Positions 3,390-4,235 of a stretch of DNA of 64,000 nucleotides are shown piece by piece; position 1 is the first letter of the stretch; each line of letters begins with the position of its first letter. The stretch spans positions 134,550-198,549 of the forward strand of contig CALXUE010000001.1 of NCBI GenBank assembly GCA_944391615.1, written 5' to 3'. Source of the DNA: an uncultured Alphaproteobacteria bacterium. Its GTDB lineage: Bacteria > Pseudomonadota > Alphaproteobacteria > RF32 > CAG-239. A program made the translations under genes and the position numbers. The notes below the pieces were generated by a model. That model searched no databases and was not told where the DNA came from. It was given only the letters and a program-made list of their open reading frames with translations.

Positions 3390-4235
3390 TTAATAAAATG
3401 TCGTTACGTTTGGTATAACCATTCCTTCTGCGGGTATATAGCTCTTCACCACGTCTAAAACTGAGGTTCTCCTTGTAGTTTGATGCTGCGGGGTGCAAGT
3501 TAAGTCAATAAGATTGTTGTCGGGAGGAGGACTAACAGTCATCCCCCAAGCTACTGTATATCCTGTTGATTCTTCTTTAAAAAATCCATAAAAAGCATGT
3601 GCATTTATGCGCAATTTACCCGGCGTAGAACATCCTGCAGATAAAGCTCCTTGTACTTCTTCATTGAATACGCTTATAATTTCTCCATTATCATCCTTCG
3701 TTATGGTTGCTCCTTTCATAAATTCATCATAAGTCAAACGTTTTGTTTGGTTTTCTGAATATTTGGTAGGTACTTTTTTGCAAACACCATTTGTTTTTCC
3801 AACAACGACATCTGTGCAAAATGTATAAAATCCTCTTAAAGTCCTTACAGCATCATAACCTTCACCATAGTATTCGGCAGTAAAAGTTGCCTGTGTTTCA
3901 GATAAGCATTGTCCACCACAAACAAAATCCCCTACCTCACAATCAGCACAACGAGGCCCAGAGCCGGAACCGGAACCCGAGTTATTCTCCAATTCCGTAA
4001 TTTTGTTTTTAATATTAGTAATTTCATTTTTAATCTTGTTTATTTCGGTTGTATTATTGGGCCCTGTGCAGTTCCAAGCGTTTCCGAACGGGCATTTTGT
4101 TCCGCCGGTGCAAGCAGAACTTGAAGTGTAGCCCAAAGAAGAACACGTCGGTGTTTGGATACAGGCTGCCTCAGCCGCCCCATTCAACAACCCTCCAGCA
4201 AACAAAGCCGATGAATATAATAAAAACTTTCTCAT
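3390..4235 (-). CDS. Secreted Cys-rich protein: an N-terminal Cys cluster, a heptad coiled-coil segment, an (SG)4 linker and a C-terminal globular domain
   Basis: Signal peptide MRKFLLYSSALFAGGLLNGAAEA. Strong RBS (rc taggaggaga) ahead of the ATG. Contains EINKIKNEITNIKNKITELENN followed by SGSGSGSG. No family recognised. Confidence 0.55.
   Translation of the reverse strand: MRKFLLYSSALFAGGLLNGAAEAACIQTPTCSSLGYTSSSACTGGTKCPFGNAWNCTGPNNTTEINKIKNEITNIKNKITELENNSGSGSGSGPRCADCEVGDFVCGGQCLSETQATFTAEYYGEGYDAVRTLRGFYTFCTDVVVGKTNGVCKKVPTKYSENQTKRLTYDEFMKGATITKDDNGEIISVFNEEVQGALSAGCSTPGKLRINAHAFYGFFKEESTGYTVAWGMTVSPPPDNNLIDLTCTPQHQTTRRTSVLDVVKSYIPAEGMVIPNVTTFY

Follow-up and report, generated by a model that had tools for sequence, protein, structure and literature searches.

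The DNA analysed here (the window) comprises 64,000 nucleotides (nt) of contig CALXUE010000001.1 (positions 134,550 to 198,549, forward strand) from assembly GCA_944391615.1 of an uncultured Alphaproteobacteria bacterium (RF32; CAG-239). Two adjacent genes on its minus strand, henceforth called the partner gene and the fibre gene, both code for proteins with Sec signal peptides and together constitute one copy of a cassette that has so far been seen only in metagenomic sequences of uncultured Alphaproteobacteria (Table 1). Our preferred interpretation, held at about even odds (probability roughly 0.5), is that the fibre protein is an exported, probably trimeric, ligand-binding "lollipop" docked on the Cys-rich partner, and that paralogous cassettes would provide a set of heads on a common base.

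Anatomy of the fibre gene and its transcription unit

The signal peptide, Cys cluster, heptads, (SG)4 linker, and C-terminal domain that an earlier note on this DNA had described for the fibre protein are all present in its open reading frame (ORF). Two details had to be corrected: the C-terminal domain (the head) measures 186 instead of about 170 residues, and the heptad repeat, while real, has an Ile/Leu core at positions a and d (I65, I68, I72, I75, I79, L82) and not one of Ile and Asn, the Asn residues being located at outer heptad positions. The heptad stretch corresponds to residues 64–85 (EINKIKNEITNIKNKITELENN). In 73 distinct stalks of the fibre family, unbroken hydrophobic a/d runs extended over 4–10 positions (mean 7.1, and at least 5 in 72 stalks), with Ile making up 75% of the a/d core residues; composition-preserving shuffles of the same stalks gave runs of 2.3 on average and never 6, and hence the heptad pattern is beyond chance. 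AlphaFold2 (AF2) predicted a helix at residues 62–84 with predicted local distance difference test (pLDDT) values in the 60s. Since trimers are the preferred state of zippers with Ile at a as well as at d (Harbury 1993, summarised in PMC9978483), a parallel trimer made by the three-heptad Ile zipper is plausible. The adjoining hinge had pLDDT values below 50 (residues 84–92) and differs in length between relatives. The head was predicted from a 55-sequence alignment as a mixed alpha/beta domain (pLDDT mostly 85–96), with a proximal subdomain (residues 96 to ~170) that is common to other head classes and a variable distal part. Across 13 orthologues, sequence variation was gathered in head residues 120–135 and 203–258, and residues 136–200, the N-module, and the C-terminal strand were constant.

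Table 1 Features of the cassette in the window (positions in nt of the window; residues are those of the fibre protein)
Feature	Residues	Position	Strand	Description
Fibre gene		3390–4235	-	281 aa plus stop codon, ATG start; from ORF listing and sequence
Sec signal peptide MRKFLLYSSALFAGGLLNGAAEA	1–23	4167–4235	-	Positively charged start, hydrophobic core, predicted signal peptidase I cleavage at AEA|A
N-module ACIQTPTCSSLGYTSSSACTGGTKCPFGNAWNCT	24–57	4065–4166	-	Five invariant Cys; putative docking unit
Stalk	58–85	3981–4064	-	GPNNTT cap followed by three heptads
Hinge SGSGSGSGPR	86–95	3951–3980	-	SGSGSGSG at residues 86–93; predicted flexible
Head	96–281	3393–3950	-	186 aa, 8 Cys, starts with CADCEVGDFVCGGQC, ends with conserved ...TTFY
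Spacer		4236–4269	-	34 nt; ribosome-binding site AGGAGG at 4241–4246, 5 nt before fibre ATG
Partner gene		4270–5106	-	Secreted protein of 278 aa with 28 Cys; constant component of the cassette
Promoter, sigma-70-like		5143–5171	-	TTTACA-17-TGnTATAAT with extended -10 TG, 11/12 matches, ~37 nt before partner ATG
Terminator hairpin of preceding gene 5261–5800		5218–5257	-	18-bp stem plus U run, dG -23.9 kcal/mol, z -6.2
Terminator hairpin common to convergent gene 352–3327		3346–3380		dG -24 kcal/mol, z -5.1; plus-strand version listed

The partner gene, whose stop codon occupies positions 4270–4272, precedes the fibre gene, and the strong ribosome-binding site and the 34-nt spacing given in the earlier note were recovered as described. 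The promoter upstream of the partner gene was the best site within positions 3200–5400, and because it lies downstream of an alternative TTG codon (5184), the ATG at 5106 is the likely start of the partner protein. The cassette is delimited at its 5' end by the hairpin further upstream (0 of 200 shuffles folded equally well). On the coding (minus) strand, no promoter-like or terminator-like site was found in the spacer; a weak promoter-like match on the plus strand (4229–4256, 9/12) overlaps it. The earlier proposal that fibre gene and Cys-rich gene form an operon is thus well supported by the flanking terminators, the single strong promoter-like site, and the clean spacer, as well as by the adjacency of both genes in all 11 comparable loci and a partner–fibre fusion (both detailed below).

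Neither the fibre nor the partner protein had a match in Pfam (fibre: E-value up to 1), NCBIfam, PHROGs, or PADLOC, and none was obtained in the PDB with single sequences or with family profiles (head and partner alignments). An identical fibre protein was found in public collections on 9–10 metagenome contigs and in one NCBI assembly, and public sources gave no name for it or for any of its relatives. The family, which the earlier note likewise did not recognise, is undescribed as judged from these searches, and no clear homology to a housekeeping periplasmic protein was detected. A lipoprotein was rejected, as the sequence before Cys25 is A-E-A-A, Glu occupies position -3 in all members, and no lipobox ([LVI][ASTVI][GAS]C) is present; matches to LPAM_1 were weak (11 of 123 family members, best E-value 0.003). 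A defence system was also rejected, there being no PADLOC match.

A modular family of paired genes

A homologue of the partner was encoded directly upstream of the fibre gene and on the same strand in 11/11 loci for which upstream DNA was available, i.e., the window, the orthologous locus L001, the paralogous loci L003–L006 from the same metagenome-assembled genome (MAG) as L001, as well as L007, L008, and L010–L012. The two genes were separated by 28–110 nt, and the partners had a length of ~290 aa with 25–30 Cys. At least five cassettes were present in one MAG, each amid unrelated housekeeping genes (neighbours across loci include infB, topA, pyruvate kinase (pyk), ABC-F, flagellar hook-associated genes, and glmS), and partner and fibre therefore represent a self-contained unit.

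The partner family consisted of 85 clusters without Pfam match or names, in which 24 Cys are conserved at 90% or more; AF2 predicted residues 95–270 of the partner with pLDDT values of 85–95. It has many CxxC pairs, and no thioredoxin-like fold or family match was detected in it. These 85 partner clusters compare with at least 527 clusters of fibre proteins, and partner copies located beside four different head classes were 72–97% identical to each other. The partner of the window is divergent (53–56% identical to others), and its fibre keeps the standard N-module. The partner thus does not follow the head class, and its most plausible counterpart is that part of the fibre which stays constant. 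Locus L006 additionally holds a stand-alone version of the partner (13866–15632, minus strand; 588 aa) with extra CSGKYY.SGC..GY.W....C repeats and no fibre gene after it. The contigs of L002, L008, L009, L011, L012, and L014–L016 end within the partner gene or shortly ahead of the fibre start, which fits assembly breaks at a multi-copy, highly conserved cassette sequence.

A homology search with the fibre protein yielded at least 527 protein clusters at an E-value of 0.01 or below, all of them from metagenomes or MAGs of uncultured Alphaproteobacteria. Among the 120 matches listed, every one shared the signal peptide and the N-module, whereas only 54 shared any part of the C-terminal domain. 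The N-module, ~33 residues directly after the signal peptide, was nearly invariant (56 distinct sequences) and follows the motif A-C-I-[QK]-T-P-x-C-S-S-L-G-Y-x-S-x-x-x-C-x-G-G-x-K-C-P-F-G-N-x-W-N-C, to which the fibre of the window conforms. Between paralogues of one MAG (L001, L003–L005), 5–13 of the 33 N-module codons differed synonymously and 1–3 non-synonymously, and the divergent fifth paralogue (L006) differed at 8–9 non-synonymous codons. Because the paralogues differ mostly at synonymous sites, the module is judged to be under purifying selection at the protein level and not merely a product of recent gene conversion; gene conversion as the sole cause of its invariance was rejected in view of the many synonymous differences within a single genome.

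Stalks, by contrast with the N-module, varied in length (3 to at least 5 heptads) and fell into several sequence types that are unrelated to each other; L017 has Cys-rich repeats in place of a coiled coil. The heads fell into two groups. Lcl_C (PF07603) matched 33/123 family members (best E-value 1.2e-17), and these DUF1566/Lcl_C heads end in RPVLAF or RPVIEF. The second superfamily comprises the head class of the window (ending in NxTTF[YNK]) and classes ending in ESTF, MITF, ISF, or QTF, which have only a proximal subdomain of ~70–90 residues in common (CxxCxVGDxxCGGxC...K.NGxCK; hhalign probabilities of 98% and 89%). As all head classes start with C-x-[VI]-G and, few exceptions aside, carry Phe as the last or second-to-last residue, the stalk is probably joined in the same way in all of them, by the first and last strands of the head. 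The same head was found on different stalks (P0004, 92% identical, and P0012, each relative to the fibre of the window), and one stalk type was found with different heads. As read from these sequences, stalks and heads are hence swappable, and the fibre of the window belongs to a large family of modular proteins, which the earlier note did not see.

The fibre of the window itself had no PF07603 match in the Pfam search at E-values up to 1, and the hhalign comparison of its head class with two DUF1566 head classes was not significant (E-values of 0.09 and 0.44), whereas the two DUF1566 classes matched one another at 5e-36. A HMMER search of 1.84 billion representative proteins with the profile of the head superfamily returned only 12 proteins, and in those long enough, the head begins at residue ~76–111 behind the same N-module; the head is therefore regarded as a lineage-restricted orphan. 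It may be very distantly derived from the Lcl_C fold.

A relationship between partner and N-module was evaluated with profile comparisons. The hidden Markov model (HMM) of the N-module matched ordinary partners only weakly (domain E-values of 0.02–0.4), always at residues ~101–135 (CIxxGY....C...KxCP...C), and the hhalign comparison with the partner profile (E-value 0.022 over 11 columns) was insufficient. C-terminal extensions of certain partners were matched by the same HMM at much lower E-values (P0191, 7.7e-8; P0136, 6e-6), with shuffled partners as controls reaching 1.3 at best. In addition, P0202 (428 aa, from a cluster of 15 sequences) combines a partner core (E-value 3.8e-60), an N-module-like unit (1.5e-6), and a DUF1566-type head (6.8e-41) in a single chain. 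Because such fusions exist, partner core, N-module, and head may be taken to act in one assembly. The N-module has five Cys, the number of Cys in stalk plus head was even in 116/121 members, and among 65 mature partners, 57 had an odd count (25, 27, or 29), all counts depending on approximate signal-peptide boundaries. With N-module and mature partner both odd and the remainder of the fibre even, one intermolecular disulfide per partner:fibre pair is conceivable.

The P0202 gene belongs to a more distant form of the cassette (L017, 59–3604), in which the N-terminal part of this gene lies in another frame (overlapping ORFs 59–481 and 366–1706), suggesting a frameshift or a sequencing error. Downstream of it, two further secreted proteins with an N-module use Cys-rich repeats as stalks. 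A Pfam scan gave no match for the heads of L017 and P0202, which were tied to the DUF1566-type heads by HMMs derived from the family.

Surroundings of the cassette in the window

Convergent with the fibre gene, gene 352–3327 (plus strand) encodes a secreted protein of 991 aa with a long P/Q-rich low-complexity middle part, repeated Cys motifs of the CEDNKTMRGCEDN type, and a C-terminal trypsin-like peptidase domain (PF13365, E-value 2.5e-6). The gene is kept beside the orthologous cassette (L001, L013–L016) and is not found beside paralogous cassettes. On the other side, genes 5261–5800 and 5920–6456 (both minus strand) are tandem paralogues of ~178 aa that are 24% identical, lack signal peptides, and are conserved only in the orthologous locus. 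The product of 5261–5800 had a weak match to Lcl_C (residues 78–175, E-value 0.0065) and a weak H-NS N-terminal-like match, and both products may be cytoplasmic DUF1566-like proteins.

Between gene 5920–6456 and infB, a gene-free stretch of ~960 bp contains interleaved direct repeats (6552–7427), namely a 76-nt unit in four copies (starting at 6552, 6680, 6806, and 7352; 64–93% identical to the reference copy) and a 78-nt unit in three copies (6621, 6876, 7233). The best-conserved copies carry a small palindrome (AGCCTACATAGAAGTAGGT). The array had no Rfam match, and scans of the whole window for tRNA, tmRNA, and Rfam families were negative. The GC content of the window is ~36–46%, with a persistently negative GC skew on the plus strand.

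Proposed function and alternatives

In the proposed mechanism, both products would be exported via their Sec signal peptides and subsequently oxidised. The five-Cys N-module would dock the fibre on the probably co-transcribed partner, possibly through one intermolecular disulfide, the Ile zipper would join three fibre chains, and the (SG)4 hinge would let the head swivel, so that the disulfide-stabilised head forms the ligand-binding end. Paralogous cassettes would keep the partner and the docking module and exchange stalk and head. The fibre would thereby be a "lollipop" with multivalent binding, acting as an adhesin or lectin beyond the periplasm, as does Lcl in Legionella; the model is drawn from this analogy and from the Lcl_C heads of the sister proteins. 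A more far-reaching version, which we regard as tentative and doubtful, holds that partner and N-module make up a new docking or display system specific to this lineage, that the constant secreted base accepts any trimeric fibre of a genome-encoded repertoire, with interchangeable stalks and heads, via a homologous Cys-knot unit, perhaps with a disulfide, that the resulting combinatorial lectin-like receptors of gut Alphaproteobacteria recognise host glycans, mucus, or other microbes, and that the orphan head is a new binding fold.

Lcl of Legionella pneumophila (PDB 8q4e) leaves the cell by type II secretion and is bound to the surface as a trimer; an N-terminal helix serves for attachment, collagen repeats form the stalk, and its DUF1566 head has a C-type-lectin-like fold that binds sulphated glycosaminoglycans (PMC11162425). 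The fibre resembles it by analogy, both being secreted proteins in which a short N-terminal element for (in the fibre, putative) attachment is followed by a long, (in the fibre, putatively) trimerising stalk and a globular C-terminal head for (putative) binding. The Lcl head type occurs in about a third of the sister proteins and was not matched in the fibre of the window by Pfam or by profile comparison. The fibre has Ile-zipper heptads and no GXY repeats where Lcl has collagen repeats, a five-Cys module where Lcl has an amphipathic helix, disulfides in the heads of its family where the C-terminal domain of Lcl has none, and an obligate Cys-rich partner gene where Lcl has no such partner. Lcl-type adhesins are the closest known functional analogue, although the fibre falls outside Lcl by Pfam, profile, stalk, and attachment element.

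Collectins and tetranectin share the order of parts seen in the fibre, i.e., an N-terminal Cys-rich region for interchain links, a trimeric coiled-coil neck, and a lectin-type head. This is an analogy only, as the fibre is bacterial, has no sequence or Pfam relationship to them, and has no Ca2+/carbohydrate motifs; Lectin_C had no Pfam match in the fibre of the window, nor in the 123 members scanned. YadA-like proteins, i.e., trimeric autotransporter adhesins, likewise bear heads on Ile-rich trimeric coiled-coil stalks and act as adhesins, as proposed for the fibre, but are anchored at the C-terminus, i.e., in the opposite orientation, and the fibre is far smaller. A YadA anchor or beta-barrel was not found in the fibre by Pfam, and its C-terminus is the globular alpha/beta head according to AF2.

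DUF1566 is described in the literature as a common target domain of diversity-generating retroelements (DGRs), i.e., as a ligand-binding scaffold, and as a domain that also occurs in phage proteins. Phage receptor-binding fibres and DGR proteins of the C-type-lectin fold resemble the fibre in pairing a constant N-terminus for docking with a head for binding that can be exchanged (both roles putative in the fibre); in contrast to them, the fibre and its partner have Sec signal peptides, no phage context, and neither a reverse transcriptase nor a template repeat nearby. From the sequences compared, the diversity of the cassettes is attributed to paralogy and module exchange and not to mutagenic retrohoming. 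The fibre family shares with polymorphic toxin systems (CDI, Rhs, MAFB-like) a conserved N-terminus, variable C-termini, and many copies, but it has no toxin domains or immunity genes, and its constant neighbour is located upstream and is secreted.

Several observations weigh against a docked, trimeric, surface-exposed lollipop. No recognisable outer-membrane anchor, lipobox, or autotransporter domain was found in fibre or partner, the N-module was predicted by AF2 with pLDDT values below 45, and the argument from Cys parity is tied to the approximate boundaries given above. Furthermore, P0206, the L006 paralogue, and L017 are family members without coiled coil, and trimerisation is therefore not essential to the family.

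Sec signal peptides as the sole export signals, in the absence of any lipobox, beta-barrel, autotransporter, or known sorting signal, also agree with a strictly periplasmic pair that serves as a structural or binding component of the envelope, with the coiled coil as a spacer across part of the periplasm; the many disulfides would suit the oxidising periplasm as well as the outside. We consider this unlikely, as several head-swapped cassettes per genome together with strain variation in the head loops typify an external, changing target, and Lcl, to which the sister heads are most closely related among characterised proteins, is secreted by a type II secretion system and displayed on the surface. 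Instead of being a structural subunit, the partner could alternatively be dedicated to helping the Cys module fold or shuffle its disulfides, leaving the mature fibre as a lone soluble secreted lectin. Its CxxC pairs, its constant pairing with the fibre in a predicted transcription unit, and its independence from the head class would be expected of such a helper, yet a catalytic helper is normally single-copy, and here each cassette has its own partner. Fusions in which a single chain unites the partner core with an N-module-like unit and a head suggest a lasting association instead, and with no thioredoxin-like fold or family match in the partner, this role is judged rather improbable.

The earlier note had proposed a "ligand or toxin". 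As a polymorphic secreted toxin or bacteriocin, the fibre would have an N-terminus for export or receptor docking, a toxic head, and a Cys-rich neighbour serving as helper or immunity factor. It is indeed the hallmark of polymorphic toxins that many paralogues share the N-terminus and differ strongly at the C-terminus, the head of the window is an orphan, and one of the 123 members had a weak match to Tox-HDC (E-value 0.0085). Nevertheless, no toxin family rose above noise in Pfam scans of the fibre and the 123 members, about a third of the sister heads (33 of 123) are lectin-like Lcl_C domains, and there was no PADLOC match. Small immunity-like genes were not found after the fibre gene, the downstream genes being unrelated (protease, topA, ABC-F, flagellar) and mostly convergent, and the neighbour is secreted and does not co-vary with the head class, the opposite of what an immunity protein would do. 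The toxin half of the former proposal is consequently not retained, and we assign it a low probability. Lower still is that of an origin from a phage or tailocin, with the fibre as a receptor-binding protein or tailocin fibre that has remained in the chromosome along with its assembly factor. An attachment N-terminus, a trimeric coiled-coil stalk, and a variable head are also the layout of phage fibres, and DUF1566 heads occur, as noted above, in phage and DGR target proteins. However, both proteins have Sec signal peptides, no phage genes were found near any cassette (the sites lie between infB, topA, pyk, ABC-F, and flagellar genes), and there was no PHROG match and no structural match in BFVD at an E-value of 0.001 or below, for which reason this origin was rejected.

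Modular secreted adhesin- or lectin-like proteins are already known; what is new in the proposed docked-lollipop cassette is the invariant Cys module for putative docking, together with the obligate Cys-rich partner and the orphan head. Uncultured gut Alphaproteobacteria are known almost solely from MAGs, and little is known of their dealings with the host or with other microbes. The cassette is abundant, multi-copy within a genome, and wholly unannotated, and it bears the hallmarks of a surface-recognition repertoire; its repeated partner and N-module sequence also coincides with contig ends in many metagenome assemblies. If the proposed function is true, the cassette would offer access to the colonisation factors of these bacteria, a new docking module that is small, rich in disulfides, and matched by its own partner and that would be usable as a protein-assembly tag, and several orphan head domains that would be open to ligand screening.

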